Positions 30 through 63,695 of a DNA stretch of 64,000 nt are shown piece after piece. Position 1 is the first letter of the stretch. Every line of letters starts with the position of its first letter. This DNA is from an uncultured virus (IMG/VR IMGVR_UViG_3300047554_000670) (taxonomy: Duplodnaviria; Heunggongvirae; Uroviricota; Caudoviricetes): the IMG/VR virus record IMGVR_UViG_3300047554_000670; one strand, given 5' to 3'. Under the pieces are notes generated by a model, which ran no database searches, was not told the origin of the DNA, and was given only the letters and a program-made list of their open reading frames with translations. Position numbers and translations under genes: made by a program.

Positions 30-707
30 ATGATTGGATTAATAGAATTTGCTAAACCCTTTAGAGGTTTAGATGTAGATACCTTAACAAGAGTATTAGC
101 TAGTGGTAAGAAATGGACTAGACATAACAGACTTCCTATATCAAAGAAAAACACATCTATAGATTTACTTCATGGGGCACATCATGATTTTGCTGAACAA
201 TTAGCTAGGTCTGGGCAAAGAAGATTTAATAAATACAGATTTGCTCCTATTACACCTCAACTAGTTAAGAAGGTTAAAGATAAACTTAAAAAATATAAAA
301 AATGGAGAAGTTTCTATATTCATGAAGAAATCACTGATAGAAGAACTAAAAGAGCATTGAGGCAACAATTAAAAAATAGAGAGGTTGAAAACTTTGTAGC
401 TGGATTAGAAGGTCTTAAACCAGGCAACGTAAGCATAGATGACTTAGACTCTCGTTCCTATTGGTTAGGAAGAAGAGCACGTAAAAAATTAATGCCTAAG
501 GACTTAAAACAAGCTACAAGAACTGTATATGATGATTATGATGAAGGTGGTAGAAGAATTCGTAATAATCCACTTCAAGCAACAGTAGACTTAGCTACAC
601 AGAGAGCTTTACGAACATCTACTCCAACTACAGCAGCATCAACATCCTTTTACTATCGAACATCAACGAAAGGAAAAAGACATAAAGTAAGAAAGAATAA
701 TATATAA
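30..707 (+). CDS. Basic protein of the 'MIGLIEF' family (putative capsid-internal/cargo protein)
   Basis: Starts MIGLIEF-AK, is K/R-rich, and ends with YYRTSTKGKRHKVRK, which resembles the family's VxSYxRxxGKxV tag. Confidence 0.6.
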   Translation: MIGLIEFAKPFRGLDVDTLTRVLASGKKWTRHNRLPISKKNTSIDLLHGAHHDFAEQLARSGQRRFNKYRFAPITPQLVKKVKDKLKKYKKWRSFYIHEEITDRRTKRALRQQLKNREVENFVAGLEGLKPGNVSIDDLDSRSYWLGRRARKKLMPKDLKQATRTVYDDYDEGGRRIRNNPLQATVDLATQRALRTSTPTTAASTSFYYRTSTKGKRHKVRKNNI

Positions 708-730
708 ATAATAAATATATCAATTTAACC

Positions 731-1606
731 ATGATCGGACTTATAGAACTGACACGATACCCTCATCTTTATAAATTTAATAAAGCTCTTAATATTAAAT
801 CCTATATTCGTAATATAGGTGGTAAGGCAGTAAGAGTAACCTCTCATAGACGACAAGCTATTATGAGAGCACATGAAGCTGCTGATGATTTATTAGCACA
901 AACTGATAGCTTATCTAGAGAGTATGGCTATCTATTAAGCCCTTCCGGTAGATTATCAAAAAGATTCTCAGGTGAGGGTAGTAGTATAAGTATGCCTCAG
1001 AGTAGAGCTATCTCCTTTGACTTACATAACCATCCTAGAGGACTTTTAGAAGGGGATTCAGGTCTTCAGACCATGCCTAGTTGGGGGGATTTAGAACTAA
1101 CTAGAGGATTTAACCAAGGGGCTATTGTAACGCCCACTAAAGTTGGTTCTTATAGAGCTAGATACTATATTAAAAACCCTAAAGAGAATCTAAATAACCT
1201 CAGAGAAGAGATGGATAATGATATTGATACACGAATGTTTATCGGTGCTTTAAGAGCTTCTTCTAGATATGAAATAGAGGATGACATCTTAACTGATTCA
1301 TATTTTGCGGCAGCTAATAGAGAATTTCTTCGTAAGAGTAATAAGATACACTATCGAGAATATGGGGCACCAGGAAAATACATCATTGAATTAGATAATG
1401 AGAACCTATACGGAAACAACCCTTATCTTCAGCAAATCGCAAATAATCAAGATACTAAAATACCGAAAGAGGTCGCTAATGAACTTTTAGCAAAGATTGA
1501 TTCTTTAGGAGATACTATAATTTCAGAACTCCGGTTTTTATTTGATAGAGAACCTAGAAGGGGCTTAAAAGATGAAATTACAAAAAGAATTAAAAGTTCT
1601 CAATAA
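731..1606 (+). CDS. 'MIGLIEL' family protein with JAB/MPN-like metalloenzyme motif
   Basis: MIGLIEL leader, IKSYIRNIGGKAVRVTSHRR tag, then E...HNHP...PSWGD matching the JAB E-HxH-S-x2-D pattern. Confidence 0.6.
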   Translation: MIGLIELTRYPHLYKFNKALNIKSYIRNIGGKAVRVTSHRRQAIMRAHEAADDLLAQTDSLSREYGYLLSPSGRLSKRFSGEGSSISMPQSRAISFDLHNHPRGLLEGDSGLQTMPSWGDLELTRGFNQGAIVTPTKVGSYRARYYIKNPKENLNNLREEMDNDIDTRMFIGALRASSRYEIEDDILTDSYFAAANREFLRKSNKIHYREYGAPGKYIIELDNENLYGNNPYLQQIANNQDTKIPKEVANELLAKIDSLGDTIISELRFLFDREPRRGLKDEITKRIKSSQ

Positions 1607-1660
1607 TATTAGATTCTATTTTGCTTACACCTAAATACTATTTATATAAGTAAACCTTAC

Positions 1661-1689
1661 TTGCCCTATCTACCCATATCTTATATACT
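1661..1689 (+). promoter_or_regulatory. sigma70-type promoter for 1738..2334
   Basis: TTGCCC-17 nt-TATACT. Confidence 0.55.
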
Positions 1690-1737
1690 CTAGGGGTACA
1701 AACACAAGTACAATATACGCAAGTAGATATACTTTAT

Positions 1738-2334
1738 ATGTCATTGATCAATGCCTTTAACAACGTTACAGAACAATCTCTAGTATTAACGAAAGAATAT
1801 CTAGAAGTTACACCTTCATTGTCATCTGTTGGAATATATGGATGGAATAAAGAGCAGGATAAGGGAAATACAGATGAAGGTAATACAGTAAAAGTTCAAT
1901 TTGTTAATGATAGAGGTGTAAAATACGATTTTTCTTACCACGTATGTAAGATAGAATCTGTCACTAAATGCTACGGGTATGTAACTTCATGGAGTACGGA
2001 TATAACAAAAGCACTAGATAATAAATACTATGAAAGTTGGGCTTATCATATAGAACAAACCATAAGTAATCTAAAGGAATTTACTTTCGTCAGTAACAAT
2101 TATGAGAAATTATGTTTTACTTCATACAATGATGGGTACTTACCTGAATACGACAGTAGTAACTATCCAATAGGATATGCATCTGGGTTTGATGATAGAA
2201 AGATTCCTCAATTTACTGCATATAACAGAACCCAACATACAAATACCAATAATGTAACCCATCATAACTATACTTATGTGCAAAGTCTAACTAATGAAGA
2301 TATAAAGAATGGGTTTGTTGTAATTAAACTTTAA
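1738..2334 (+). CDS. Hypothetical protein
   Basis: 198-aa ORF with its own promoter-like element; no motif recognised. Confidence 0.7.
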   Translation: MSLINAFNNVTEQSLVLTKEYLEVTPSLSSVGIYGWNKEQDKGNTDEGNTVKVQFVNDRGVKYDFSYHVCKIESVTKCYGYVTSWSTDITKALDNKYYESWAYHIEQTISNLKEFTFVSNNYEKLCFTSYNDGYLPEYDSSNYPIGYASGFDDRKIPQFTAYNRTQHTNTNNVTHHNYTYVQSLTNEDIKNGFVVIKL

Positions 2335-2350
2335 CCCTACATTATTTTTA

Positions 2351-2450: not shown

Positions 2451-2457
2451 ATAAGAA

Positions 2458-2896: not shown

Positions 2897-2934
2897 CTTT
2901 CGTTGTTGTTAAGAACTAGAATATACTAACATAA

Positions 2935-2973: not shown

Positions 2974-4683
2974 ATGGCTTCTCATAAGAAACAGAAAGAA
3001 TTATTACAGAAACAACTTGAACTACAACAGCTTAGAGATTATAAGAAACAGGTACAAGCTGATAAAGAACGTTTAGCTAAAATAACTAATTATGCTAAAG
3101 CAGAGAAGTCTTTATATGAATACCATAAATTGACTTGGAATTTTCATGTACCTCAGCCTTTTATTGATAACTGGCATATTGGTGCTATATGTGAACATCT
3201 TCAAGCTCTTCACAACAGAGAGTTCCGCAATCTTATCATTAACATTCCTCCACGATTTGCTAAATCCACTATTTGTTCCATCTCATTTCCTACATGGGCT
3301 TGGATTAATAAACCTGAAGAACAGTTCATGACTACCTCATATAGTGATGATATTGTTCTAAGAGACTCCACACGTAGTCGTAGTCTTATTCAACATGAGT
3401 GGTATCAAGAAGGTTGGGGACATAGATTTGAACTACGAAAGAATGTAAATCAAAAGAGTCGATATGAGAATAACTTAGGAGGATATAGGATTGCATCTAC
3501 TATTGGTGCTGGTAAACAACTTGGAGAAGGCTATACGTGTTTGATTGTAGATGACCCTCTAAAATCTATCGAAGCATTTAATAAAGCTGCATGTAGTAAG
3601 GTCATAGATTGGTGGAAATACACTATCTCTACCCGTGCTAACACTGATAATGCGGTACGTCTGATTATTATGCAAAGACTCTCTGAGATGGACCTTGTAG
3701 AACATATATTAAAAGAAGATGCACAAGAGGAAGATTGGTATCATTTATGTCTTCCTATGCGATATGAGAAGAGACCTAAGTATGTAACAAGAAGTCCCCT
3801 TAAGTTTGTAGACCCTAGAACTGAGGAGGGAGAACTACTTTGTCCTAAGTATCAGAATGAAGCTAAGGTTCGTATCCTAGAGTCTCAACTTGGTAAATAT
3901 GGTACAGCAGCACAGTTACAACAACGTCCAGCTCCCATTGGCGGAGGATTAATTAAAGAGGATGATATCAAGTTCTATGCTCAATCCATCTCTCCCTATC
4001 AATACCCAATTCTCTTTCACTACCTTATTAGTTCTTGGGACTTTAACTTTGGTGATGAGAATCAAACCTCTAACAATTCATTCTGTGTAGGTCAAGTATG
4101 GGGATTTGGTAAAGACCAACGATACTATCTGTTACATCAGACTAAAGGACATTGGAGCTTTACGGAACAAATTGATGCTATCAAGCGTATGAATAAAATG
4201 TTTCCTCAAATCCGATATAACATAATTGAACAAATGGCTACAGGTTCTGCCGCTATTGATACTATACGTAAAGAGCTTCCTCGTCTTAATGTACAAGGGA
4301 TTAAACCTAAGGACTTTAACTGGGGTGGAAATAAACAAAATACTAAGCTACTTCGAGTTAACGCTTATCTTCCCGTATTTGAAAACAATAAAGTATGGAT
4401 TCCCTCTAAATCTATTGCACCTTGGGTTCTTGAATACGTACAAGAGTTAGTTACATTTCCAGCAAGTCAATATGATGATCAAATTGATGCAACAGTATTA
4501 GCATTAATGTGGTTTGAAAGTAAGAATCTAATGAAGGGAACTGGAATTGACATAAGTGAAGAGCTTAGAAGAACAGAACAGGAAAGACGATTCTACAATA
4601 CCCAGGACGTTAATAAAGGTAGAATTAATACAGCAACATCAATAGCCTTAAGTGCCTTTGATAAACCAAGAAATATATTTTAA
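2974..4683 (+). CDS. terL: Terminase large subunit
   Basis: Walker A-like INIPPRFAKST, Walker B LIVDDP, coupling motif IMQRL, nuclease motifs SWD and DDQIDA. Confidence 0.95.
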   Translation: MASHKKQKELLQKQLELQQLRDYKKQVQADKERLAKITNYAKAEKSLYEYHKLTWNFHVPQPFIDNWHIGAICEHLQALHNREFRNLIINIPPRFAKSTICSISFPTWAWINKPEEQFMTTSYSDDIVLRDSTRSRSLIQHEWYQEGWGHRFELRKNVNQKSRYENNLGGYRIASTIGAGKQLGEGYTCLIVDDPLKSIEAFNKAACSKVIDWWKYTISTRANTDNAVRLIIMQRLSEMDLVEHILKEDAQEEDWYHLCLPMRYEKRPKYVTRSPLKFVDPRTEEGELLCPKYQNEAKVRILESQLGKYGTAAQLQQRPAPIGGGLIKEDDIKFYAQSISPYQYPILFHYLISSWDFNFGDENQTSNNSFCVGQVWGFGKDQRYYLLHQTKGHWSFTEQIDAIKRMNKMFPQIRYNIIEQMATGSAAIDTIRKELPRLNVQGIKPKDFNWGGNKQNTKLLRVNAYLPVFENNKVWIPSKSIAPWVLEYVQELVTFPASQYDDQIDATVLALMWFESKNLMKGTGIDISEELRRTEQERRFYNTQDVNKGRINTATSIALSAFDKPRNIF

Positions 4684-4731: not shown

Positions 4732-5445
4732 ATGGTCAAAAAGAATAACGAAAGAAGAAATCAGATACTTAAAGGTGCGGGTATTGCCGCCGGGGGTATT
4801 GGGGTATTAGGAGCGGGAGCTTATGCATTAAGAAAAGGGAAGTTTGGTAAACCTAAAACCCCTCAGACACAAACATCTAACCCTAATCCTCTTACAGCAC
4901 CTCCGTCTGCTCCTAAAGCACCTAGTTCAGCCCCTCCACCTACTCCACCTAAACCACCTAAAGTTTCTAGAAAAAAGAAGAAAGCGGCAAAGAAAGCTGC
5001 CGCAAAAGCCCAAGGACTTAAATATTCTAATAACCACACAAACACTATAGACTTCAATATGTATAAACCTAAATCACGATATGTCTCTGACTATGATAAT
5101 TATGAATTTGGATTTAACCCATTTCGTAAGAAGAGTCTAATCAAAATTGCACCTATTACAGGAAAGAAAAAACTACCGGGTGCATCTAAAACTCCAATTA
5201 CAGATAATCCCATGGCAAGAATGGGGAATAGAAATAAGAGACCTAATCCCCTTGCTGCAAGTAGAGATGATGATTTGAGTAAATCTATTATTGGGCAAAG
5301 ACGTACAGCAGGAGCTAATTATTCTAAGATGAATAAAGCCCCTCAGTATAGTTCTCCTGGTGGTAGAGGTATTAATGCAGGATATGCAAAACCCCGTAAA
5401 CCTACAAATATGAATCTTAATTCTCGTATGGGACGTAAAAGATAA
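4732..5445 (+). CDS. Basic Gly-helix protein, putative cargo family
   Basis: N-terminal GAGIAAGGIGVLGAGAYAL helix, Pro-rich linker, internal IDF|N and YEF|G motifs; paralogous to the next gene. Confidence 0.65.
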   Translation: MVKKNNERRNQILKGAGIAAGGIGVLGAGAYALRKGKFGKPKTPQTQTSNPNPLTAPPSAPKAPSSAPPPTPPKPPKVSRKKKKAAKKAAAKAQGLKYSNNHTNTIDFNMYKPKSRYVSDYDNYEFGFNPFRKKSLIKIAPITGKKKLPGASKTPITDNPMARMGNRNKRPNPLAASRDDDLSKSIIGQRRTAGANYSKMNKAPQYSSPGGRGINAGYAKPRKPTNMNLNSRMGRKR

Positions 5446-6054: not shown

Positions 6055-6103
6055 TTATTCAGCTACAGGGAATTTATGTAGATTATTCAGCGATAGGACA
6101 TTC
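6055..6103 (-). repeat. 3'-end echo of the HU gene (PIAE* followed by PVAE*)
   Basis: Minus strand cct atc gct gaa taa vs cct gta gct gaa taa, 28-nt offset. Confidence 0.65.
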
Positions 6104-6475
6104 ACCCGTAGGGCATAGTTCACTTTCTTTAGCACCATAAGGAGCTTCACCGTCATAGGTAGCAACCAAAGACTTGAAGCTGCTGTATGCACTAAAGTTA
6201 GGAACATACTTTTCAGGAACTTCAACTTTTACATTGGGATTCTGAGGGTTGTTACGCAAAGAAGCTGCACGATAACGAGCCTCAAATACACCAAACTCAT
6301 GCAGTGCTACATCATAACCATTAGCAACAGAAACTTTAATAAAATCCAGTAGTTCACCCACAATCAGAGTGGACTTTTCTTTATTAAGCTTAATACCTTG
6401 GTCAGCAAGCAATCCTTGCATATGAGTACCGAGGTCAGCTTTGGTATAGCGATAGCGTTGAGTACGTGTAGCCAT
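6083..6475 (-). CDS. hup: HU/IHF-like DNA-binding protein
   Basis: G.dV.L..FG.F..R.R.A...NPQ.....VP....P.F motif; GGAGA RBS. Confidence 0.9.
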   Translation of the reverse strand: MATRTQRYRYTKADLGTHMQGLLADQGIKLNKEKSTLIVGELLDFIKVSVANGYDVALHEFGVFEARYRAASLRNNPQNPNVKVEVPEKYVPNFSAYSSFKSLVATYDGEAPYGAKESELCPTGECPIAE

Positions 6476-6504: not shown

Positions 6505-9500
6505 GTGTGTTATTATATGGCTACCAAACATAAAAGTCAACATATAAATAGGATTATGTCAGATATTCTTTCTGATACACATAAGCTACAAGAGATAAAG
6601 AATAAAGACAAGAATAAAGTCCTTAGTTTATCTCGGAATGTAAAGAATGAGAACAGACAAGCTAGAGAAGCTAAGGAAGTAGGTAAATTCTTTGATGATA
6701 CTCTCTTTCGTTATAGCAACACAATTAGAGCTAAGATTCGTCAGCTCGTAGTTAATAGTGAGGGTAAAGACTTAGGTATTGGTAAGATACTAAGTCCTTA
6801 TCTTAAAGTTCTTTGGTATGAATGTTTACATGAAGGATTATTCTCTGTATATAAGACTAATAATACTAACAGCTATAAATCTGATAAGAACAAGAATGAC
6901 TTTAACCATTATAACAACCCTAGAGTAATTGAATTTGCAACTATAGACTTATCTGGTAGAGGTAAATCAGATGAGAATAAGCCTAAATATAGTGAGAGAC
7001 AACAGAGAATTCTAAGTAGAGCACAAAGAGATTCTGTTCCTAGAGGGGTGCAGATGTTAGCTGAGAATATTAAGGATGTTGACTCTTTATCTCCTGAAAT
7101 TCAAACTCGTATTCTTGATCATGTACAGCGTAATCCAGGTCAATATAGAGAAGGTGATTTAGATTTAATTTATGAGTCTTTTAATAGGAAGAACAAAATA
7201 CGTTTAAGAGATGCTACAAAGTCTATAGGGGAGGTTCGTACTACTAGTCCGGGGAAAAGTCAGCGTATGGGTTTTGTTCCTTCTAGTACTAAGGAAGGAC
7301 AACGTAGAATTCAGAACTTACAGGCTGAACGTGCAGACCTTAAAACTAGAATTAAAAGTACTAAATTAACGAAAGAAGAAGCAAAAGCTTTACGTGATTT
7401 AGAATCTTTATCACCGGATGCTCAAAATGCAATACGATTAAGGTATTTAGGAAGAGAAATTGATCCTAATGACCCATTATCTGTTGCATTAAATAAGTCA
7501 GAAGCTAAAGAAAATACTAAAAGACTTAAAGAAACTACACGAGAGTTACGGGATAGAGGTGTTCGTGTAGGTAATCCATTAGCAGAATCCAAGTCACCTA
7601 AGACTCCTAAGGAACCTAAAGGGGCAAAGGTAAGAACCAATACTCGTAAAGGGGATGTTGTATCAAAAGGTTTTGCTAATCAAGAATACGATGAGATTAT
7701 TGATTCTTGGGATACTTTAAGTAACTATGATAGAAGTCGAGTAATTAAGAAACTTGAAGAACAAGAAGCTATTAAAGATATTTTAGAGTCTTCTATGTCT
7801 AAGGAAGATAAAAACTTAAGCTTAAAGTTACTTCTAAATAAAGAAGCTAAGGTAGAAGATTTTCAAAACTTCCGTCCTATGGAAATTCCTGATTCCATAA
7901 GTAATTGGATTGAAGAAAATGCTACTCGTAGAAAAGCTTACATGGAAGGGTATAGGCAGAATTTACAACTAAAGGTATCTCCTAGTGGTAAAATTCCTGA
8001 AGATTATTTCACTGCTAGGTCTAATACTTTACTTCCTAAGTCTGAAAAAGCTACGAAAGAAGAAATTAAAACAATATTAGCAAATAAGAAACTAACAGAT
8101 AAAGAAAAAGTCATTGCTATTGATAGACTTACTGGTCCAGGTAAGAATAGAACTGTAAGACGACAAGTTATTGGATATATTAAAGAGAGAGAAGGTTTTA
8201 CTTTAGATAGTTTAGTTAATACAGTTCATACAGCTAGACTTGGTGAAGATAGAGCTTATCAAGGAGTTAATCTTAGAGATAGATTAAAATCTTTACTTTC
8301 GTTGTCCCCTAAAAATATCCCATCTGGTAGTAGACCAGGTACATTAGCTAGAGGTACTGAAGTTGATATAAGAGAACGTATACGAGATATCGAAACATAT
8401 TATCCTTATTTGACAGGTAAGTATGATGCTGCTCAGTATATGGAAGCTCGTACTCTAGAACTTAGTAACTATTATGAGGAAGAGTTTAAGAACGGAATTA
8501 AAACTCGGATAGCTGAACTATATAAGAATAAAGATATTACTCCATCACAGAGAAAGAAACTAATCTCTGAAATGATTTCTCAAGTAGAAACAGGTACACA
8601 ACCTTTAAGTAAAGCTGATTCATCTCTTATTACTAGGTTAAGAGAATCATTTAATAAAGAAAGAGTAAAACCCTCTAAAGACCAAAGTACAAAGCTTGAT
8701 CGAATTGAAGATGAAGCTCGTAAGATATGGGTACGTAAACAAAGAATTGAATCTTTAATTGCCATACTTCAACAACCCCGTAATCCTTCAGCTACACCTG
8801 AAGAAGCTAAAGCCTATAATAATAAGAAATTAAAAGCTGTTAAAGAACTATCGGCTGAATTTGGAATTGAAGTTCCAAGAAATGACAAAGGCAATATCTC
8901 TATTAGTGGATTAAATCCAAGTATAGATAAATTTTATAAAGAAATGGAAGCCTTAGGAATTACTTCGGGAATTAAAGGTACAGATTTTATTGGTAAATAT
9001 ACTAAGACTAAAGGTAAAGTTAAGCCTAAGGATGTAGTTCCCGTAGATTCTCTTCCACCTGATTTAGTGGAAGAACTTAAGGTTAGAGGTTTACTTAGAA
9101 GAGGTAAAGGTTCAACAGGTTATCAAGAAACTATATCTCAACAAACTGTAAACACTATAGCTAAGAAGATTAGGACTGAACATGAACGTACTCAGAATAG
9201 ATATACTGGGGTTAACCCTATTGTTGTAGAAGAGCATAAGTCTTTACAGGAAGCACGTAGACAATATAAGACTTTACAAGAAACCTATAGAACTAGAACA
9301 GCTAGAGGGATAAGTGCTAAGAAACCTCCTTCCTTACAGGAACTCTATATACAAACCCATAGAGCTAGATTAGGAAGAGAACTTAGACCTGATGAGGTAT
9401 TAAGTGAAGCTGAGATGAATAACTTAGATAATTTAGTTGTTAATCCTTATCAACGTCTCGATAGAATTCTTAACAATGAAATTACTACAGCTTATAACTT

Positions 9501-11738: not shown

Positions 11739-12713
11739 ATGCTAATTAAATTTAAGAAAAGCTCAGAAGGCTTACAGCTAGCTGGTCCAGCATTAATCTT
11801 TGTAGAAGGAAATCACGTTGATAGTAAGAAACGTGCTCATTCCTTTGGTCCTGATCGTATTCGTAAGATTGTAGAAAATACGAATATGTTTATGCGAAAA
11901 GGAGGTCGTGTTCCTTTTCAATCAGACCATCAGAAAACACAACAATTTAATTTAGGTGATGTTGAAGGTGAATTTTACTGTTGTCCAATTGACGAAAGTA
12001 ATCTCCCTGACCCTAAGTACAAGCATTTAATTGGTAAGTTGGGCGTATTTGTAGATCGTCTAGTAGCTAAAGGTACAGATGCTGTCAAAGCAATTAAGGA
12101 GGGAAAGATTCGTACTTTATCTCCCGGTATTGACCCTGTGACAGAAGCTTTTGTAGAAGTATCCGCTACTCCAATTCCCGCTATTATTGGCCCTAGTATT
12201 ATGTTCAGTAGAGATGGAACTGATTACGAAGCTGATAATATTTTGTTGTTCGAGTCATCTTCTCTAAATCCTCGTCCTAGCGCGAGTTATGAAGGTGATG
12301 ATGAGGATGATTATCAAGGTAATATCTCTCCCGCTATGAGTCGTAAAACTAAAGTGTTCTCTATGGAGGAAGCTTTAGGACGTAGTGAGAATATTAAGCA
12401 GATTAAGACCAAGTATGATGAGTTATCTGAAGCTCTTTATCGTGTTCTTTGTTCTTATTATTCTGCTGAGGAGGAAGAGTTACAAGGTAGAGACCCTGTA
12501 AAAGAAAGTTATAACAATATTGAATATTTTGTTAAAGAAATTGAAGGTTTGTTTGAGCTTACTTTTAAGGAAGAAGAACAACAAGAAGATGCAGAAATGC
12601 CTGAATCTCCTGGGGCCAAAGCATCACAACAACCTCAAGCTAATTATTCTCGTTATGATGGTTTGAGCTATAATCCAAATAGATTGTTTAGACGACGCAA
12701 ATATGACTATTGA
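11739..12713 (+). CDS. Prohead protease (Mu gpI / P2 gpO-like)
   Basis: VPFQSDH...GDV...IKEGKIRTLSPGID...EVSATPIPAI pattern; position upstream of scaffold and capsid genes. Confidence 0.75.
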   Translation: MLIKFKKSSEGLQLAGPALIFVEGNHVDSKKRAHSFGPDRIRKIVENTNMFMRKGGRVPFQSDHQKTQQFNLGDVEGEFYCCPIDESNLPDPKYKHLIGKLGVFVDRLVAKGTDAVKAIKEGKIRTLSPGIDPVTEAFVEVSATPIPAIIGPSIMFSRDGTDYEADNILLFESSSLNPRPSASYEGDDEDDYQGNISPAMSRKTKVFSMEEALGRSENIKQIKTKYDELSEALYRVLCSYYSAEEEELQGRDPVKESYNNIEYFVKEIEGLFELTFKEEEQQEDAEMPESPGAKASQQPQANYSRYDGLSYNPNRLFRRRKYDY

Positions 12714-13590
12714 TTTTTATACCGGCCCTTACCAAGAGCTAGTTACGTTTAGTACCGCTGTAGCTGAAGCGCCTTTCGCTTCCGAACTACTGTCCAAACT
12801 CGAAGAAGAGTATGAGACTATTGATGAAGCCATTGAGGACTTGGTTGAAGGTTTTAATGCTGCTGGTTTCGATGCTACGGAAGAAGATGTTCTGGAAATG
12901 TTGACCGAGCAAATTCCGATTTCGGCTGAAGCTCTTGAAGTTCTTGCAGAATACTACATTGATGAAGATGGTGAAGCTGACGAAGTTGGCTACGAACGTC
13001 TTGTTAATGCCGCTGTAGCTTCTCATCAAGCCTTCATTGAAGATGATGAAGATGAAGACGACGAAGAAGATGAAGACCCTTATACTACTTATGATGAAGA
13101 TGAACTCTACGATGACCTTGATGAAGAATTCGAGGTTGAGGATGAGTATGATGAGTACGATGAGGATGACCTGATTGATGAAGAAGAAGCTGAAGAATTT
13201 AACGCTGCGTATGAGCGTGTTCTTGAGTTTAGTCATCAACAAGAGATTAGTTCTCATCTGAATGACCTCATGGAATATGCGGCTCATCTTGTAGAAGAAC
13301 AGCGTCTTGCTCCTATTGCCTTCCAATGGATGTTTGGTCAAGATGATGGTCAACGGGCTATTAACTTTAGTGCAGCTTCTGAAAGCCTTGGTATTGATGA
13401 TGTAACTCATCTTCAAGCTATCGAATATGCTCTGAATCTGTTTGACTCCATTGGTGAACTTACTAATCGTGCAGGATATCGTAGTCCTTTGAATTTCTCG
13501 TCTATCGCGATGGAAGACATTGCCCCTGATACGGCGGATGAGCAAGTTGACTCTTTGGCTGCGGGTATCTTTCGTGGGCTAAATTCATAA
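12703..13590 (+). CDS. Highly acidic scaffolding/core protein
   Basis: D/E-rich, lies between protease and capsid genes, carries repeated xF|S motifs (VTFS, LEFS, INFS, LNFS). Confidence 0.65.
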   Translation: MTIDFYTGPYQELVTFSTAVAEAPFASELLSKLEEEYETIDEAIEDLVEGFNAAGFDATEEDVLEMLTEQIPISAEALEVLAEYYIDEDGEADEVGYERLVNAAVASHQAFIEDDEDEDDEEDEDPYTTYDEDELYDDLDEEFEVEDEYDEYDEDDLIDEEEAEEFNAAYERVLEFSHQQEISSHLNDLMEYAAHLVEEQRLAPIAFQWMFGQDDGQRAINFSAASESLGIDDVTHLQAIEYALNLFDSIGELTNRAGYRSPLNFSSIAMEDIAPDTADEQVDSLAAGIFRGLNS

Positions 13591-16402: not shown

Positions 16403-16726
16403 ATGACCTATTCTTGGCTAAAGTTTTCTTTCGTTAATCAAACGCAAGGTGATTCTTTCCCTCTTAACTCCCCTCTTATCTATTGTATTGTTGAAAATCC
16501 AAATAATACAGTAACAACTCTTGATATACAAGTTCAGCCTGATAAAGATACCCCTAATTACTGGGTAACACTTAAGACTATTGATATTGATGGTACAGCT
16601 AATCAGGTTATTAATTCTGATACCTTAGCTGATATTTCAGGTGCTGTAGGTCCAGCTAGTGTTTTTAGGTTTGTATTTGCTAATAGCATTACCGCAACCC
16701 TCTATTTCAACGCCTATAGATATTAA
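16403..16726 (+). CDS. Hypothetical virion protein
   Basis: 107-aa beta-rich ORF with AAGGA RBS. Confidence 0.7.
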   Translation: MTYSWLKFSFVNQTQGDSFPLNSPLIYCIVENPNNTVTTLDIQVQPDKDTPNYWVTLKTIDIDGTANQVINSDTLADISGAVGPASVFRFVFANSITATLYFNAYRY

Positions 16727-31948: not shown

Positions 31949-31984
31949 AATCTCTTTCGTTGTTTAGCGGAAGAGATTTTTTTT
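31949..31984 (+). terminator. Intrinsic terminator after the tail tube gene
   Basis: AATCTCTTTCGTT-GTTT-AGCGGAAGAGATT followed by a T run. Confidence 0.85.
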
Positions 31985-32044
31985 ATATCTTATTTACATA
32001 ATTAAGGTATGATGATATGGATTTTAATTTAATCCACGAAAGAT

Positions 32045-52980: not shown

Positions 52981-53292
52981 ATGACCTTAAATGCAAAAGA
53001 AGCTTTTCATATTCTTACACCACAAGATAAAAGTAATATGTTAGGAGAAACATCCTCTTTTCTTTCGTGGTGTAGCTCACAGTATACAAATATTGCAGTA
53101 GATACAACTTGGTTAGATAGTGTATTAGGAGGTTGTCAACCTAAAGATAACTACACACTCTATAGTGTATTTCTCTCTGTGTTTAATGAAAGAAATGATG
53201 AAGTTAAAACCAACCTAATCAATCTATATACAGTTACAGGAATACTTACTGAATCTACTAAAAATAATCTACTTAGTAATTTAGCTAACTAG
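52981..53292 (+). CDS. Hypothetical protein
   Basis: 103-aa ORF at the end of the operon. Confidence 0.6.
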   Translation: MTLNAKEAFHILTPQDKSNMLGETSSFLSWCSSQYTNIAVDTTWLDSVLGGCQPKDNYTLYSVFLSVFNERNDEVKTNLINLYTVTGILTESTKNNLLSNLAN

Positions 53293-53302: not shown

Positions 53303-54913
53303 TTACGGAGAATAGTAAGAGAAAGTTAACACCTCAGGTGGATTATCTACAGATTCTGGATCACTCCCAAATTTTGAATTAGCCCAAGCTTGAATCCGTT
53401 GCTGGTACTCACGGTCTGGCACTAGGTCACAGGTAGGGTTAGTACTGGAGACCCGATAGCCTTCGATAGTGAGGGGATCCCCAGAGATGATGCTGTCATT
53501 GATTATGCCGAACGTGGGGGGGTCGTAGGCTTTGCGTCGGGTTGGTAGATAGTTGAGTAATCGGTCAGTCTGATAATCGTTCAGGCACTCATCAGGGGAC
53601 ACCGGAGGGGTAACCGTTGCCCCCCATTCCAGGTTTACGCTCTTGGGATTATCCCGGAAGTCCTCAAGGGTGACAGGATCAGGGCTGAAGACCAAATCCT
53701 CTAAGGCTTGACCTTCGGCATACTGTGAGGTTCCATCGTCGTAGTAGCGACGAGCATATATTTTACGGCGTTGGATGTTCTTCTTGCCGTAAAATCCGTA
53801 GATTCGCTCCTCTAGGTAGCTAGGGCCATCTGTTCTGACTTCCTCTGTGGGGTATCCAGCAGACCCTGATGGAGTTTCATAAACAATTACCCACGTAATC
53901 CACCCCTGAGAGTCTATGTATGACCATGACCGACCCCATTGACGATCACACAATATTTCAACATCGGACAGGCTGATACTGGCGCTAGCACTGGCATCAA
54001 TAATTAGGGTTGCGGCTGAATCGAGACTAGACAGAGCGTGGATCCTGAATTCGTCAACATAAGGCGCGGTATCTGAACTTTGCCCTGTAAACGCAAAATC
54101 GAATGATGACCCCCCGATCGTGTTTACTCCATCAAAGAAAGCACCTACGTCAGTTTGACTTTCAAAAGGAATCAGTTCAATAGCAGACCCTCCATTATTC
54201 TCGGACGATATTGCAAAAGACCGTGATGCACTAACAGACCCCCTAAGTGCTAGCCCGCTGAACGTTGCTGAGTAAGTGGCCTCTATAAACCACCCTGTCG
54301 TATCAGTGCCCATAGATGCGCTCGTAGATATCGAGACTGAATTACCCGTTTGATTGAATGTTGCTGAGCCAGTAGGGGGAGGACCAACGGGGAAGATGCT
54401 ACCAATACTAACTCCCCCAACAAACTCTAGCGTCCCCAAGTCTCTCCATTCCAAAGGTATTGACGTGGCCAGTGTGTATTTGCCATCAATTAGTAGATAA
54501 ATTTCAATATCATTTAGGAGTTCAGGGTTTTGTTCATAGTACGGGTTGAATGTAGGGGTCACCATCTCATCCCGTCTGATACTAGGCACATACCGATACA
54601 GCAATCCCACAGAAGGCACTATGTTTCGTCGTACAGGCTCTGGAGCAATATACTTCCTTGTAAATGTTCTTTCGTTAAGTACGGGATTAAACTCTTCTCT
54701 CACCCCATAGTACGTACCATTCTTGGTATCTCTAAATACCCATACTTTATTTCCTGGATATATGTCACATAAAGCTGTAACTGATAAACCTTGATAACGA
54801 AAGGAATTATTAGCTTTACATCCTACCGTAGCATTTATAACTAAATTATCATTGGTATTTTTAATTAAAGGTTCAATCAGGCTTCGTAGTAGGTTTCTCT
54901 GTTCAGTATTCAC
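53303..54913 (-). CDS. Hypothetical tail-associated protein in inverted orientation, with GC-richer C-terminal region
   Basis: 536-aa ORF, GTG start; N-terminus similar to 46616..46798. Confidence 0.65.
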   Translation of the reverse strand: MNTEQRNLLRSLIEPLIKNTNDNLVINATVGCKANNSFRYQGLSVTALCDIYPGNKVWVFRDTKNGTYYGVREEFNPVLNERTFTRKYIAPEPVRRNIVPSVGLLYRYVPSIRRDEMVTPTFNPYYEQNPELLNDIEIYLLIDGKYTLATSIPLEWRDLGTLEFVGGVSIGSIFPVGPPPTGSATFNQTGNSVSISTSASMGTDTTGWFIEATYSATFSGLALRGSVSASRSFAISSENNGGSAIELIPFESQTDVGAFFDGVNTIGGSSFDFAFTGQSSDTAPYVDEFRIHALSSLDSAATLIIDASASASISLSDVEILCDRQWGRSWSYIDSQGWITWVIVYETPSGSAGYPTEEVRTDGPSYLEERIYGFYGKKNIQRRKIYARRYYDDGTSQYAEGQALEDLVFSPDPVTLEDFRDNPKSVNLEWGATVTPPVSPDECLNDYQTDRLLNYLPTRRKAYDPPTFGIINDSIISGDPLTIEGYRVSSTNPTCDLVPDREYQQRIQAWANSKFGSDPESVDNPPEVLTFSYYSP

Positions 54914-56383: not shown

Positions 56384-56884
56384 TTACAAACAAATCTCTA
56401 CAGAGGCATCCTCTTTCGTTAGAACAACGCTAGAGCCTTGGAAGGTTAACATAGTGGTCCAATAATAAGAACACCCATTGATTTGAGCGTCATTAGGAAT
56501 CCATTGGCCTCCACTAACTGTATGTGTATTGGTTACACAATAATTATTATCGTTAGCTGTACCTGAGCTAAAAGTTGCTGTATTGTTAGACTTAAGAGAT
56601 AGAGGAATTGCCATAGAAGCATCTAGAGTTGTAATATCAGAAGGACAAGAACCCTCAGTTGTAGGTACAGCTACAAAAGGATGTCCTACAGCACTTACAA
56701 TCTGACCTTCATTTCCAACTACAGCAACTTCAATAGTAAACTCAGCTTTATTTACAGGGGGAGTAAATTCTGTACTTCCCGATGGTGTACTATCATAGTT
56801 CTCATATCGATCATCCTCACAAGACACTAGAAAACTTGATAGACCAATCAAACTAAGACTAAGCACAGTATTTTTAATCTTCAT
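56384..56884 (-). CDS. Lipoprotein
   Basis: MKIK plus hydrophobic stretch plus LVSC lipobox. Confidence 0.7.
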   Translation of the reverse strand: MKIKNTVLSLSLIGLSSFLVSCEDDRYENYDSTPSGSTEFTPPVNKAEFTIEVAVVGNEGQIVSAVGHPFVAVPTTEGSCPSDITTLDASMAIPLSLKSNNTATFSSGTANDNNYCVTNTHTVSGGQWIPNDAQINGCSYYWTTMLTFQGSSVVLTKEDASVEICL

Positions 56885-57655: not shown

Positions 57656-57808
57656 TTAATCCTCTAGTACAAAAACTTTATAGTCTGGGGTCGATGTAAT
57701 TGTAAAGTTTATAATATCTAACTCTTCTGCTTGTGATGTTGCTACACTTTGACGATTAGTGTTACAACGAAAGGAAAGTTTCTTATCAATATCATTAATG
57801 TAAAGCAT
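57656..57808 (-). CDS. Small hypothetical protein (50 aa, not in the ORF track)
   Basis: MLYINDIDKK...VFVLED* with GAGGTG RBS; fills the gap in the operon. Confidence 0.55.
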   Translation of the reverse strand: MLYINDIDKKLSFRCNTNRQSVATSQAEELDIINFTITSTPDYKVFVLED

Positions 57809-58042: not shown

Positions 58043-58256
58043 AAAAATCTCTTTTAGCTTGAAATAGAAAAGATTGCATATCACTATATTCTTTCGTGAT
58101 TTGTCGATACTTTTCTAATAACTCATCACTAACATTAACACTCACACTTCCATGTAAGTCTTCATCATAAGGAACACCCCATTCTTTCTCAAAGTCTTCC
58201 GCTGTCTCAAAATAACAGTAGACAGCATCACTCTCATGAATATAGATTTTAGGCAT
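58035..58256 (-). CDS. Hypothetical protein, paralogue family A (start reassigned to MPKIYI)
   Basis: VSDELLEKYRQITKEYSDMQ similar to LDDDLILKYKEIMSGYEQMQ. Confidence 0.65.
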   Translation of the reverse strand: MPKIYIHESDAVYCYFETAEDFEKEWGVPYDEDLHGSVSVNVSDELLEKYRQITKEYSDMQSFLFQAKRDFYE

Positions 58257-58719: not shown

Positions 58720-59887
58720 TACTTCTTAACTTATATGTATAATACTGTTTGCTAATCGGGCCTGAAATGTAGATTGGTGTATGGAATCCCATAGGATAAG
58801 AGTATAAATTACTGGGATTAACGAAAGAATATACATGAGCTAACACCTCTTCAATATAATTATTAAACTTAGTATCTACCTTATCATTAACTACAGAGAT
58901 ACCAATATCAATACCTAGTTCAAATAATTGTTCTTTATTACAACCATATTCAATAAAGGGAATGTAGCGTAATAGGGAACGATGACGATTCCAATCTCTA
59001 ATCTGTCCTAAGTCTAGAATTGTTGCCATGTAGTTAGTGCTAAGGGGATTAGCATATAACTCGATGATTCCAGGGACTACATCATAGTGGTGAGGGTAAT
59101 ATGATTGTACTAATTCCAGTAACCCATCTCTATTATGGTCATCCAATCGATACCGTTTGCTTAGTTCTTCAGTAAAAGCTACGTCTTTCTTATAGTCATG
59201 AGGTTCAGTATGACGAACAAGATTAGCTCCTGGAGGACTAACACCCTCAATTTCTTTCGTCAGTAATTCTTCAATAAGATTTCCAATACTTACGAATTCC
59301 TCTAGCTCATCATAACCTTTGAGAAGACTAATAAGCATAGCCCACTCACGTAGGTTAGTGCTAATCCACAAAGAGGTACGAGTACCCATAAGAAGTAGAT
59401 ATCTAATAGAATCATAAGCATCTTTACCATAGGGTTTGGCTCGTTCCAGTACTTCTCTATAGAAGTCTGTATCAGATTTAGTTCCGATAAGACCTTCTGT
59501 ATCCATTTTTTGATATCTTGTACTTCGTTGTGAAGCCCCATAAGTATTAATTTTATTTAACATAAACATAGCTAGTAGCTCACTCACTCCTTCAAAGGAG
59601 ATACCAACTTGAGCAAACTCAGCTACTGAAGAATGCCCGTAGTCAATAGCAATCTTACTTGCTCTCTCAGACATAGATACACTCTTGTCTACAATCTCGT
59701 CTATAATTCCAAGTACATTCTTATCAGAACGTGAATATCGTGCGGCTACAAAACAGAAATCCTCACCTGTAAGACCTTCATTTTCATTCTTTGGGGTAAA
59801 AAATCTCTGAACTCTCTGATTACTTTCGTTCTCTAAACCAACGATACTTAGATTGGGATAAGAAGTCTCAATTACAAAACTTTTCAT
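58655..59887 (-). CDS. thyX: FAD-dependent thymidylate synthase, tandem Thy1-type
   Basis: ARYSRS, YGHSSVAE, SQRSTRY, TNLRE and RDWNRHR motifs. Confidence 0.85.
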   Translation of the reverse strand: MKSFVIETSYPNLSIVGLENESNQRVQRFFTPKNENEGLTGEDFCFVAARYSRSDKNVLGIIDEIVDKSVSMSERASKIAIDYGHSSVAEFAQVGISFEGVSELLAMFMLNKINTYGASQRSTRYQKMDTEGLIGTKSDTDFYREVLERAKPYGKDAYDSIRYLLLMGTRTSLWISTNLREWAMLISLLKGYDELEEFVSIGNLIEELLTKEIEGVSPPGANLVRHTEPHDYKKDVAFTEELSKRYRLDDHNRDGLLELVQSYYPHHYDVVPGIIELYANPLSTNYMATILDLGQIRDWNRHRSLLRYIPFIEYGCNKEQLFELGIDIGISVVNDKVDTKFNNYIEEVLAHVYSFVNPSNLYSYPMGFHTPIYISGPISKQYYTYKLRSNDGGHTAYRQQAAKFLATLFA

Positions 59888-59935: not shown

Positions 59936-60412
59936 TTAAGGAACTATAAAATCTTCTGGATTAGACTTAAAGAAATCACTTAACTCTACAATAGGGGTTT
60001 TCCTATCTTTAGCCCAATATCCTTCACATACTCTCTCAAAATCTATATTGTAGAACTTCCGGTATTCTGAACCAAAAGTATAGGTAACCTGTAAGCCTAA
60101 GTAATTCTCACAAAAAATTGTAGTGATATCAAAAATCTCTGCTTTAGTAATAATTGGCTTACGGTTAAGTAGTACGGATACCCACCATTCAGACCCTACG
60201 GTAAAGTAGTCGGGAACGTCATCAATGTAGATAAGAGATTCAATATGTTTAATTGCCTCTTCTTTACTTTCAAAAGCGACTTCAGTATAACTATCCCCTA
60301 ATGCATATACCCAATAGTCTTCTTCATATTGACATAAAGTAAAGTCTCTATTGTTAGACACGAAAGGTTCAGTATAGATAATCTTTTCCCCACGGGCACC
60401 ATACCTATTCAT
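59936..60412 (-). CDS. Hypothetical protein, paralogue family B
   Basis: FESKEEA...FTVGSEWW. Confidence 0.7.
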   Translation of the reverse strand: MNRYGARGEKIIYTEPFVSNNRDFTLCQYEEDYWVYALGDSYTEVAFESKEEAIKHIESLIYIDDVPDYFTVGSEWWVSVLLNRKPIITKAEIFDITTIFCENYLGLQVTYTFGSEYRKFYNIDFERVCEGYWAKDRKTPIVELSDFFKSNPEDFIVP

Positions 60413-60937: not shown

Positions 60938-60950
60938 ATACCTTTACAAC

Positions 60951-61554: not shown

Positions 61555-62269
61555 TAGTTAGTACCTCTATTGCTAAACGTTTAATTGTACCTTTACTTTC
61601 GTTGTTTCTAGCTAACTTAATAGCATTTTCTGTACCCTTACTTTGTCCATCCCATACAGCAATAAAGTAATTGCATAAGTTAACTAGGACTTGATTCCTT
61701 TGCATACCAGCACTTCTACCAAGTTCATTCCACTTTGCAGCTACGGGCACATACATATACTCATTAGCTTCTGCATATTCTCTTAGTACAGCATCCACCC
61801 CTGTACTACAGTCTCCTCCGATAATATATCTCTTAGTAGCTTGTGTATTAAGATTTACTAAATATTTATCTAAAATAGAATAAATCTTATCTTTATCCTT
61901 AATAGTTCTAGAACCTGAAATACAGACTCTAGGAGAATTAGCAAATTCTAAATAAGTATCACAATGACAAGGTTGTGGATTACACCAACATGAGAAACCA
62001 TTAGTTTGGAAAGCTTTACCTAACAACGAAAGATAATTATATCTATCACAGGGCTTATATTTAGAGCTTAATAGAGAAGAATCAACCTCGATAGAACTTC
62101 CTAATAAGATAGCTCTAAAGTACTGATTATGTAAGTTAATAACCTTAGCTCTATTCTCTTCTGTATCTCTAGTTAATTTATAAGGATTACCTAAAGAACT
62201 ACCTCTATCACATCTAAATCCTAAGATAGAATCCTTGTTTCTAAGATTAAAAACTTTATACTCTACCAT
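61541..62269 (-). CDS. DUF4326-like + SLOG (YspA/DUF2493-like) fusion protein
   Basis: RGSSLGNPY...CWCNPQPCHCD, then ISGSR...GVD...AGMQRNQ...AVWDGQSKGT. Confidence 0.75.
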   Translation of the reverse strand: MVEYKVFNLRNKDSILGFRCDRGSSLGNPYKLTRDTEENRAKVINLHNQYFRAILLGSSIEVDSSLLSSKYKPCDRYNYLSLLGKAFQTNGFSCWCNPQPCHCDTYLEFANSPRVCISGSRTIKDKDKIYSILDKYLVNLNTQATKRYIIGGDCSTGVDAVLREYAEANEYMYVPVAAKWNELGRSAGMQRNQVLVNLCNYFIAVWDGQSKGTENAIKLARNNESKGTIKRLAIEVLTNECK

Positions 62270-62294
62270 AAACTATCAATTTCCATATCATAGG

Positions 62295-62489
62295 CTACCA
62301 ATTTCCTAGTAAACAAGATTTAGGAGGTTTAACTCTGCTCTTACTCTCTTTATTACGTCTTCCACAAAGGTCACATTTCTTATTATTCTCTACATAACAT
62401 CTATCACAATAAGAACAAAATCCTTGATATCTACTTCTAGAAGATAGTTTATATTTATAACGATTACGCATAAGTAAATAATTTCTCAC
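62295..62489 (-). CDS. Small Cys-rich (Zn-ribbon-like) protein
   Basis: CSYCD...CDLCG. Confidence 0.55.
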   Translation of the reverse strand: MRNYLLMRNRYKYKLSSRSRYQGFCSYCDRCYVENNKKCDLCGRRNKESKSRVKPPKSCLLGNW

Positions 62490-63156
62490 TAGCTTTCTTA
62501 TACTTACCCTCTTTCTTATTTACCCAAGTGTCAATTTCTCTTTCGTAAATACAGGTAAAATCATCGGGTGCTTCATATTCACTAACGAAGACTTTACAGG
62601 GTAGGTTTCTACACCAATCCCAGAACTCATCATGATTAAACTTAGCTATCTTACTGTATTGAGTTGTGTTCTTATAAGGTGGGTCACAATACACAATTGC
62701 ATTGGAAGGAATAACTAAATCTTTATAATCACAACAAATTAAATCACTTCCTTGTAGTAAAGGAGATTGTTTAACCGCACTATTATATGCTTCGGTAACG
62801 TAATCTCTATTGGATTTATTCCTAGCCCATCCCCCTAAAAACTTAGCACCATAACTATAAGTAAATGAAGCAAAACCCTTATGAGGATAAGCATCACTAT
62901 GTCTAAGCTTTCTATAGTCTTCCTCAGTAAACTCTAAGTTATTCTTAGGAAGTTCATTAACATAATCTCTTATAGAGATAAGAGCTTGGATTGTATAAGG
63001 ATTAGCATCAGAACCAAGTCTAGGATTAGCTACTTGACTAAATACATTAGCCCCTCCTACAAATGGTTCTACCCATACATCATCAGGTTGTCTATAAGCT
63101 AGCATTAGTGGAACTATGTCCTTAACTAATCTAGACTTACTTCCCATATATTTCAT
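62464..63156 (-). CDS. DNA adenine methyltransferase (D12/Dam-like, short form)
   Basis: YMGSK, EPFVGG, YCDPPY, VFVSEY. Confidence 0.9.
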   Translation of the reverse strand: MKYMGSKSRLVKDIVPLMLAYRQPDDVWVEPFVGGANVFSQVANPRLGSDANPYTIQALISIRDYVNELPKNNLEFTEEDYRKLRHSDAYPHKGFASFTYSYGAKFLGGWARNKSNRDYVTEAYNSAVKQSPLLQGSDLICCDYKDLVIPSNAIVYCDPPYKNTTQYSKIAKFNHDEFWDWCRNLPCKVFVSEYEAPDDFTCIYEREIDTWVNKKEGKYKKASEKLFTYA

Positions 63157-63164
63157 ACCTGATA

Positions 63165-63695
63165 CTAGTCTTTATAATTTCTAATAATCACATCATTAAC
63201 CTTAACTCTACTCTCTTTAGTAGCACCAACACAACGAAAGGAAGATAAGTCAATAATCTCATAATCTCTATATAGTTCTCGTATTAAATCAGTTCCTGAG
63301 TTAGTCATTAACCATTTAGCTTTATTTAGACTATGGTTTATCCAATTAAATAATTGAACTTGATCAAATACAGAATCATTCCAGTAAGAGTTAAAGGTTT
63401 GGTCATAAGGAGGGTCTAGGTAGAAGAAGCTACTACTAAGGTCAAACTCTGTATCTACTTGACTATAGCTTGTATTTGTTATTACTAAGTCTACGGAGTT
63501 TAGATAATTATGAATTTTTACTAAGTTATTTACTATAGGGTCAATGTTAGGGGATTGTTTACCGTAAGGAACATTAAACTTACCTTGTTTATTAAATCTA
63601 CAGAGACCGTTATAACCAAAGTTTAAGAGATAAATAAATCTAGCAGATTGTTCTGCTAACTTAGGAAATATATTCTCTTCTAGAGAATTATCCAT
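63165..63695 (-). CDS. dam: Dam-like methyltransferase, C-terminal half of a split gene
   Basis: ARFIYL..GYNGLCRFNKQGKFNVPYG, YLDPPY. Confidence 0.8.
   Translation of the reverse strand: MDNSLEENIFPKLAEQSARFIYLLNFGYNGLCRFNKQGKFNVPYGKQSPNIDPIVNNLVKIHNYLNSVDLVITNTSYSQVDTEFDLSSSFFYLDPPYDQTFNSYWNDSVFDQVQLFNWINHSLNKAKWLMTNSGTDLIRELYRDYEIIDLSSFRCVGATKESRVKVNDVIIRNYKD

Follow-up and report, generated by a model that had tools for sequence, protein, structure and literature searches.

A seven-base DNA word evenly spaced along each strand of a freshwater phage genome, with phage primase start sites as its best-supported reading

The stretch of DNA analysed here is 64,000 nt from an uncultured virus (IMG/VR record IMGVR_UViG_3300047554_000670; hereafter the window), and the element in question is a seven-base word, CTTTCGT on one strand and ACGAAAG on the other, whose copies run through the whole of it. 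The window belongs to a large siphovirus-like phage and codes for head, tail and packaging proteins, which are listed together with every copy of the word in Table 1. A second IMG/VR contig (G002; 71,060 bp) overlaps the right end of the window, differs from it at 220 of 10,041 overlapping bases and extends 53 kb beyond, and we joined the window with the rest of this contig into a composite of 117,452 bp that combines two strains 2.2% apart. Because a contig of 136,124 bp carries a protein identical to the predicted primase of G002, a genome length of about 136 kb is probable, with roughly 19 kb lying beyond the composite. Outside the window, the composite holds replication genes (a family A DNA polymerase and, at L016:6192-7844 of G002, an AAA_25/DnaB-like helicase of 550 amino acids (aa)), recombination genes (an exonuclease, a Sak4-like annealing protein, RuvC, and an Mre11-like phosphoesterase with an ATPase neighbour), and genes for a ribonucleotide reductase, an RNA-ligase-like protein and an HNH endonuclease. 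Judged by protein identity, the phage is a distant relative of the Pseudanabaena phages PA-SR01 and Pam2 (34% in the capsid, 29% in the primase) and of Nodularia phages (27% in the polymerase), all of them cyanophages. A near match at the DNA level was not found among isolated phages, and the nine sequencing runs listed as containing the stretch are labelled freshwater metagenomes.

Table 1. Copies of CTTTCGT and other features of the phage, in window coordinates unless stated otherwise; copies on the - strand read ACGAAAG on the + strand
Feature	Coordinates	Strand	Remark
CTTTCGT	666..672	-	
CTTTCGT	1789..1795	-	
CTTTCGT	2084..2090	+	
CTTTCGT	2897..2903	+	intergenic
CTTTCGT	3435..3441	-	
CTTTCGT	4748..4754	-	
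CTTTCGT	6705..6711	+	
CTTTCGT	7369..7375	-	
CTTTCGT	8053..8059	-	
CTTTCGT	8296..8302	+	
CTTTCGT	9954..9960	-	CGAAAG core kept in aligned G003 as TCGAAAG
CTTTCGT	11358..11364	+	core kept in aligned G003 as CTTTCGA
CTTTCGT	11992..11998	-	
CTTTCGT	13569..13575	+	
CTTTCGT	14777..14783	+	
CTTTCGT	15632..15638	-	
CTTTCGT	16428..16434	+	
CTTTCGT	18154..18160	+	
CTTTCGT	19683..19689	-	
CTTTCGT	21807..21813	-	
CTTTCGT	24108..24114	-	
CTTTCGT	24275..24281	+	
CTTTCGT	25686..25692	-	skipped in the initial annotation
CTTTCGT	26232..26238	+	
CTTTCGT	26434..26440	-	
CTTTCGT	28391..28397	+	
CTTTCGT	30035..30041	-	
CTTTCGT	30456..30462	+	
CTTTCGT	31954..31960	+	intergenic
CTTTCGT	32036..32042	-	intergenic
CTTTCGT	32676..32682	-	
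CTTTCGT	34584..34590	+	in tape-measure gene
CTTTCGT	36459..36465	-	in tape-measure gene
CTTTCGT	36963..36969	+	in tape-measure gene
CTTTCGT	38833..38839	-	in tape-measure gene
CTTTCGT	39014..39020	+	in tape-measure gene
CTTTCGT	39353..39359	-	in tape-measure gene
CTTTCGT	41138..41144	+	in tape-measure gene
CTTTCGT	41403..41409	-	in tape-measure gene
CTTTCGT	42204..42210	-	skipped in the initial annotation
CTTTCGT	43199..43205	-	
CTTTCGT	43696..43702	+	
CTTTCGT	45143..45149	-	
CTTTCGT	45635..45641	+	
CTTTCGT	45712..45718	-	
CTTTCGT	47238..47244	-	
CTTTCGT	48344..48350	+	
CTTTCGT	48898..48904	-	
CTTTCGT	50518..50524	+	
CTTTCGT	53062..53068	+	
CTTTCGT	54669..54675	+	
CTTTCGT	54797..54803	-	
CTTTCGT	56413..56419	+	
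CTTTCGT	57767..57773	-	intergenic
CTTTCGT	58091..58097	+	intergenic
CTTTCGT	58821..58827	-	
CTTTCGT	59254..59260	+	
CTTTCGT	59823..59829	+	
CTTTCGT	60360..60366	-	
CTTTCGT	61596..61602	+	
CTTTCGT	62026..62032	-	
CTTTCGT	62540..62546	+	
CTTTCGT	63234..63240	-	
Large terminase	2974-4683		
MuF-like head protein, 1726 aa			in the window
Major capsid protein	14630-15739		
Tape-measure protein, 3143 aa	33236-42667		
Portal-like protein; ThyX-like gene			in the window
HU/IHF-like DNA-binding protein gene	6083..6475	-	PF00216, E 4e-12
D12-class N6-adenine DNA methyltransferase, three open reading frames	62464-63156, 63165-63695, 63688-63999	-	
WDGH-domain protein	2513-2896	-	PF25311, E 8e-34
Predicted primase, 289 aa	L016:5336-6205 of G002		outside the window

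An exact search of the window returned 63 copies of the word, 30 on the + strand and 33 on the - strand, and 39 copies of the octamer AACGAAAG. In 100 dinucleotide-preserving shuffles the heptamer averaged 6.01 +/- 2.18 copies with a largest count of 13, so that none reached 63, and an order-2 Markov model, which expects 6.4 copies, ranks it as the top 7-mer of the window (z = 22, against z = 14 for the highest-ranking unrelated word). The composite holds 128 copies (59 on the + strand and 69 on the -) against 11.9 expected, a density of 1.09 per kb that is uniform along its length, across structural and replication genes; G002 taken by itself has 83 copies and only 9 of a reversed control word. 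The word is sharply defined at the first base of ACGAAAG, in that the base preceding CGAAAG in the window is A in 63 cases, C in 2, and G and T in 1 each. An initial annotation of this DNA, made by manual scan, had already noticed the over-representation and had the octamer count exactly right, while its heptamer count of about 59 was slightly low and its base composition of about 35% GC compares with a computed 37.2%.

Evaluating where the copies fall with respect to genes, we found 58 of the 63 within open reading frames of a crude gene model and 5 between genes, with every reading frame in use (11/11/10 for ACGAAAG on the coding strand and 7/12/7 for CTTTCGT on the coding strand). The word is moreover served by rare codons, with ACG making up 10% of threonine, TCG 3% of serine and CGA 10% of arginine codons, and the observed-to-expected ratio of CpG in the window is 0.61. 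When synonymous codons were permuted within genes (n = 300), the heptamer averaged 16.3 +/- 2.9 copies with a maximum of 25, and when codon order was permuted (n = 300) it averaged 13.2 +/- 2.6 with a maximum of 23; both means are inflated because the motif's own codons stay in the shuffles. Enrichment thus survives dinucleotide- and codon-preserving shuffles alike, the check that had been proposed for it, and these results support selection on the DNA word and not on proteins, as had been argued initially from shifting frames and seemingly rare TCG and ACG codons.

Other familiar explanations were set aside on the same material: a promoter or terminator, by the presence of copies on both strands within co-oriented genes; a peptide motif, by the use of all six frames; and a mobile repeat, by the mere 7-12 bases that copies share.

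Beyond its exact core, the word carries a flank on one side. Across the 128 composite sites, the four positions 3' of ACGAAAG are A in 78, 98, 94 and 85 cases, C occurs in only 3, 2 and 1 cases at the first three of them, and the position directly before the word is A at 79 sites, which on the opposite strand reads 5'-TTTT-CTTTCGT-T-3'. Because this flank information is one-sided, we describe the word as directional; an exact core of 7 bases sits in a total length of about 11-12.

The copies are also placed far more evenly along each strand than random placement would have them. In the window, the coefficient of variation (CV) of same-strand gaps is 0.50 on the + strand (P < 5e-5) and 0.62 on the - strand (P = 0.002) against 0.97 for random placement, and the smallest same-strand gaps are 569 bp and 520 bp, respectively (P about 1e-4), while the closest pair on opposite strands is 77 bp apart. 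Pooled same-strand gaps in the composite average 1827 bp with a CV of 0.57 against 0.99 at random, and only 2 of 126 fall below 500 bp where 30.2 are expected; this mean, and a largest gap of 6121 bp, agree with Okazaki-fragment intervals between sites on a lagging-strand template. Placement on one strand is independent of that on the other, as a - site lies within 300 bp of 18 of the 59 + sites (20.3 in controls, P = 0.81) and the nearest - site is a median 514 bp away from a + site, compared with 459 bp under circular shifts (P = 0.83). A single 9.4-kb tape-measure gene holds four + copies at gaps of 2379, 2051 and 2124 bp, and gene borders therefore do not set the spacing. With a background rate of about 0.05 copies per kb per strand, no physical ruler is needed either, because selection that fills long gaps would alone yield the pattern at so low a rate. 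The gap distribution tested strand by strand thus bears out the even series described in the initial annotation, whose 17 + strand positions are all correct and enclose 16 gaps of 1498 to 2709 bp; the copies in its two - strand runs are real as well, with one copy passed over in each (at 25686 and 42204).

In related phages the word persists in a changed form. We compared two pairs of overlapping contigs, G003 with G004 (68% identity in the large terminase) and L026 with L027 (51% identity in the primase), and found CGAAAG at about one per kb in both. The first pair has 31 copies against 10.1 expected in 24.8 kb, preceded by T in 16 cases and A in 11, and the second has 22 copies in 20.8 kb, preceded by T in 15 and A in 5, such that the relatives' variant can be written (T>A)CGAAAG(A), with an A following the core. 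The variant in L026 is evenly spaced (CV 0.59, P = 0.007). Six copies of the window lie in blocks alignable to G003, and there the 7-mer is kept at none and the CGAAAG core at two. Because positions are unconserved in this way, what selection maintains is copy density and not any individual site, and the term "ruler" used for them at first was an overstatement: sites turn over between relatives, and selection for coverage without gaps would itself produce such evenness where chance copies are rare. Between strains, the 40 differences listed out of 1115, from the assembled contigs of four runs, include none inside the motif, where about 0.3 would be expected.

The strictness of the first base may have to do with the avoidance of TCGA. 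Short palindromes are avoided in this phage (GATC 58 against 397 expected, a ratio of 0.15; CGCG 0.15; GCGC 0.31; TCGA 0.32), and because GATC, CGCG and TCGA are depleted we take it to be under strong restriction pressure. TCGA is much less avoided in the relatives, at ratios of 0.76 and 0.84, and the strict A may for this reason simply be what is left of an (A/T)CGAAAG word once its T form is avoided.

Turning to proteins that could read such a word, we found a 289-aa open reading frame directly upstream of the helicase gene, which is in turn followed by an 83-aa open reading frame and then the family A polymerase. Pfam gave no match to the 289-aa protein even at E <= 1, a sequence-profile search of the PDB returned nothing relevant, and PHROGs gave a weak match to phrog_47, "DNA primase" (E 0.0028). 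An exhaustive profile search recovered 268 homologues, the longer of which are fused to D5_N/DUF5906, VapE-like, DUF3987 or AAA_25 helicase domains. Across 91 aligned homologues the motifs CPxC, EGE and DxDxxG are invariant and two further cysteines are kept in at least 90%, and an AlphaFold model built on this alignment reached a predicted local distance difference test (pLDDT) score of 94, up from 39.8 for an earlier fold from 4 sequences. Its top PDB matches are DnaG catalytic cores, an Aquifex primase comprising a zinc-binding and an RNA polymerase domain, as well as Twinkle and T7 gp4 primase, with a Foldseek probability of about 1.0 and template-modelling (TM) scores of 0.3-0.4, modest values that are expected because the protein is flexible and two-domain. 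On this model, the phage has a zinc-ribbon/Toprim primase of its own, which is of the DnaG/T7 gp4 type and separate from its helicase. Two single-protein scans of viral contigs for this primase family returned no locus.

The best-supported reading, which we advance tentatively, is that the word is a genome-written map of start sites for the phage's own primase, and we infer the primase as reader, the strand that is read and the point at which a primer starts. As an option the primase had been named from the outset, and it has gained support from the predicted zinc-ribbon/Toprim primase, the DnaB-like helicase and the Okazaki-scale spacing. The sequence 5'-(TTTT)CTTTCGT(T)-3' on a single-stranded lagging-strand template would be where the zinc-ribbon/Toprim primase, travelling with the DnaB-like helicase, starts an RNA primer. 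The primer could begin in one of two registers: as pppACGAAAG(AAAA), which starts with AC like T7 primers, or, as would be the case in the relatives, as pppGAAAG(AAAA), which consists of purines only and leaves the template G and T/A as cryptic bases. The latter would be the more economical register and one common to the relatives. A requirement for 6-7 bases would be satisfied by chance about once per 10-20 kb per strand; such sites being too sparse, selection would therefore write copies into genes, with rare codons and in any frame, until one site stood about every 1.8-2.0 kb per strand, the scale of Okazaki fragments. Evenness would follow because long gaps get filled, whereas extra copies nearby would be neither selected nor frequent by chance, and there would be a series on both strands because either strand can serve as lagging-strand template, for example in recombination-dependent replication, for which Sak4-like, exonuclease, Mre11-like and RuvC genes are present. 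The one-sided, purine-rich flank would be the trace of the copied primer. In its fullest form, which we regard as possible while having our doubts, this account has a Toprim/DnaG-type primase evolving a 6-7-base template requirement, Okazaki starts being written into both strands of the genome, and word and zinc finger co-evolving between lineages; the 6-7-base word does differ by lineage and is not rich in 406 cyanobacterial genomes, both of which speak for a start-site map.

Known primase sites are the closest kind of element to this word and also the source of the main difficulties. DnaG-type primases read a short template word with a cryptic 3' base through their zinc-binding domain; that of T7 needs 5'-GTC-3', works only at the 5-mers GGGTC, TGGTC and GTGTC and makes the primers pppACCC, pppACCA and pppACAC (PMC2910064), and AtTwinkle, an orthologue of T7 gp4, recognises 5'-(G/C)GGA-3', in which two bases are cryptic, and begins with CTP (PMC5737085). 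Word length, register and starting nucleotide therefore vary within the enzyme family. Our word resembles such sites in that it is read on one strand, has a directional flank and recurs on an Okazaki scale in a phage that has a predicted zinc-ribbon and Toprim primase beside a DnaB-like helicase. It differs from them in being 7 bases long (11-12 with flanks), tenfold enriched and even, whereas the known words have 3-5 bases, and it exceeds the tri- to pentanucleotide length of primase sites. We therefore say that it works like a primase recognition site and do not claim membership of that class, because of this length and because the assignment rests on the genome sequence. Sequence-specific priming is also a property of archaeo-eukaryotic primase (AEP) primase-polymerases with a helix-bundle domain, as in phage NrS-1 and its kin, from which the primase here differs in that it would belong to the unrelated Toprim/DnaG superfamily.

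Several observations weigh against a primase as the reader. DnaG-type primases are not known to need more than 3-5 template bases (PMC2910064, PMC5737085), and the T7 primase 5-mers, used as a control, exceed expectation only slightly (94/141/85 against 57/125/68), lack even spacing (CV 0.92 and 1.00) and so offer no precedent for the pattern. Those words are so short that chance already supplies about one per 250 bp, so enrichment and even spacing are absent there. PA-SR01, whose primase is 29% identical and which was the sole complete isolate genome with a primase homologue to be analysed (Pam2 has a homologue too), shows only a fuzzy excess of purine-rich CAGAAAA (133 against 43) and no even spacing of it (CV 0.96 and 0.82). 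The variant in G003 is only about 3-fold enriched and unevenly spaced (CV 1.24), and the first base, A here, is mostly T in the relatives, which is awkward for a primer start there. Forks moving one way would not require equal density on both strands. Single-strand accessibility, finally, is alike for the word (0.543) and for flank-shuffled controls (0.544), on either strand.

A word read on one strand could also be met by a travelling helicase-nuclease, be it the host's RecBCD or AddAB or another translocating enzyme of defence or repair, and in a Chi-like step the word would switch that enzyme from degradation to recombination or a harmless state, with dense copies on both strands shielding the DNA from any end. 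Chi is likewise a short asymmetric word read on one strand with direction, and an asymmetric 7-base word with a directional flank and a separate reading on each strand would suit this role; known Chi words are, however, G-rich. Some phages are enriched in the Chi of their host (Zheng et al. 2025, PMC12315714; Chi-rich phages include LLS and P1), and the lambdoid phages rich in Chi are, in the same paper, those without their own recombination module. The present phage departs from this rule, as it has Sak4-like, exonuclease and RuvC genes. Five named cyanobacteria carry fewer copies of the word than of its reversed control, and in 401 genomes drawn evenly from the cyanobacterial phylum it reaches at most 0.32 per kb, against 1.09 per kb in the phage, and a ratio to control of at most 2.7, although the host may lie outside this sample. 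A one-letter variant in the relatives, moreover, fits a fast-evolving reader encoded by the phage better than a conserved host enzyme, and the Chi-like option, raised initially, is weakened by the phage's own recombination genes and the lack of enrichment in cyanobacterial genomes to a point where we consider it unlikely. A phage enzyme that nicks DNA or modifies a base at the word, for instance an adenine of ACGAAAG through the D12-class methyltransferases, in the service of packaging, ejection or anti-restriction, strikes us as distinctly unlikely. Candidate enzymes are coded (the D12-class adenine methyltransferase open reading frames, the HNH endonuclease and the RNA-ligase-like enzyme), and the restriction pressure described above would give a mark its use; yet we know of no need of nicking or methylation for copies every 2 kb or in tenfold excess, restriction-modification targets are usually avoided and not enriched, and CTTTCGT has no adenine, so that an adenine mark would be possible on one strand only. 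A precedent exists in the localised nicks that several phages carry at a consensus word, as in T5/BF23, phiKMV-like phages and tf (5'-TACT/RTGMC-3'), where the word is phage-specific and lies in genes and where nickase and sites appear to co-evolve (PMC3517423). In tf, T5 and phiKMV-like phages all nick sites nevertheless occupy one strand at 4-14 per genome, whereas here 59 lie on the + and 69 on the - strand, 128 in 117 kb, and the nick option of the initial annotation thus departs from the documented systems.

Readers of double-stranded DNA, or no reader at all, fit the per-strand spacing less readily. Copies could be docking sites by which a phage protein arranges the genome in condensation, packaging or transcription, and with an HU-family gene between the terminase and head genes an HU/IHF-like protein is a candidate; IHF-type proteins can read asymmetric words, and an architectural role would go well with copies spread evenly over the genome. 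A protein binding the duplex would, however, see both orientations, and the combined series should then be even, when evenness is instead found per strand and copies on opposite strands are independently placed and as close as 77 bp. The literature yielded no precedent for such docking, and we think it improbable. The word might otherwise be a by-product of biased mutation or repair, or mirror a word abundant in the host. A phage can indeed mirror a host word, given that Nodularia phage vB_NpeS-2AV2 (bases 1-50000, L024) has 40 copies of the HIP1 palindrome GCGATCGC against 0.4 expected, on both strands, and HIP1 has been linked to particular enzymes. Like HIP1 and the DNA uptake sequences (USS/DUS), our word is short, highly iterated within genes and found in all frames, but unlike HIP1, which is a palindrome and a property of hosts, it is asymmetric, even per strand and free of any HIP1-type excess in the 406 cyanobacterial genomes, with the proviso that the host may lie outside that sample. 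HIP1 itself has a count of zero in this phage. A mutational drive would convert near-cognate sites anywhere, and even spacing per strand (2 of 126 gaps below 500 bp against 30) would not be expected from it, which leaves an origin without a reader very improbable.

Were the word a map of primase start sites, lagging-strand fragment starts would be fixed by genome sequence and not left to frequent short words, and a replication enzyme would shape codon choice in every viral gene. The 289-aa predicted primase and a defined 7-base word would then form a testable pair for the study of how zinc-finger primases read DNA, and metagenomes can be screened for the signature to predict the recognition sequences of replisomes. 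If the word is instead Chi-like or a nick or modification site, it would still stand for a genome-wide DNA signal that has not been described before, in a group of freshwater phages with cyanophage relatives. In literature on the word, phage nicks, primase sites and evenly spaced phage words, from which most subscription journals lay outside the search, the pattern was not described.

Attempts to name a host returned little, as a search of genome contigs with the ribonucleotide reductase protein gave no relative and the WDGH protein, searched against the ESM Atlas, pointed to no host taxon. Structural look-alikes of the latter in the Atlas include clusters in which WDGH is combined with the Tad2-like Thoeris anti-defence domain, at TM scores under 0.5 that make this a lead only. 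The ribonucleotide reductase (1205 aa, L019:2800-6417 of G002) contains an intein with a LAGLIDADG homing endonuclease. The HU/IHF-like gene runs on the opposite strand and is flanked by the terminase region and the gene of the 1726-aa MuF-like head protein, and one of the D12-class methyltransferases is apparently split into N-terminal and C-terminal open reading frames that overlap by 8 bases. Elsewhere in G002, a ThiF-family protein (E 5e-7) lies near a weak Prok-JAB match (E 0.02; L016:388-1410 and L015:18697-19653), and the two could act together in ubiquitin-like conjugation or deconjugation. ARAGORN placed a 95-nt tRNA-Ile(TAT) within a predicted permuted tmRNA (L015:10260-10705), a tmRNA call that is probably spurious, and a tRNA-Met(CAT) at L016:16082-16155.

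Other words of these genomes also depart from expectation. The whole PA-SR01 genome (L023, L028 and L029; 137,012 bp) has no GATC and no GGCC, where base composition predicts 489 and 209. Words built on ATATC/GATAT are in mild excess in the relatives L026/L027 and G004: CAATATC (20 against 3.8) and ATATTGA (26 against 6.4) in L026, and CGATATC (9 against 1.1) in G004. A second heptamer of the window, AGCCGCA/TGCGGCT, has 20 copies against 1.65 expected (z = 14) and spans positions 13278-59741 (for example 13794, 23746 and 29575, and on the - strand 13278, 19277 and 21327). In the composite, the structural-gene half contains 20 of its 22 copies, and 14 of the 22 have TGCGGCT on the + (coding) strand; the excess may arise at the level of codons (Ala-Ala) or reflect another signal.

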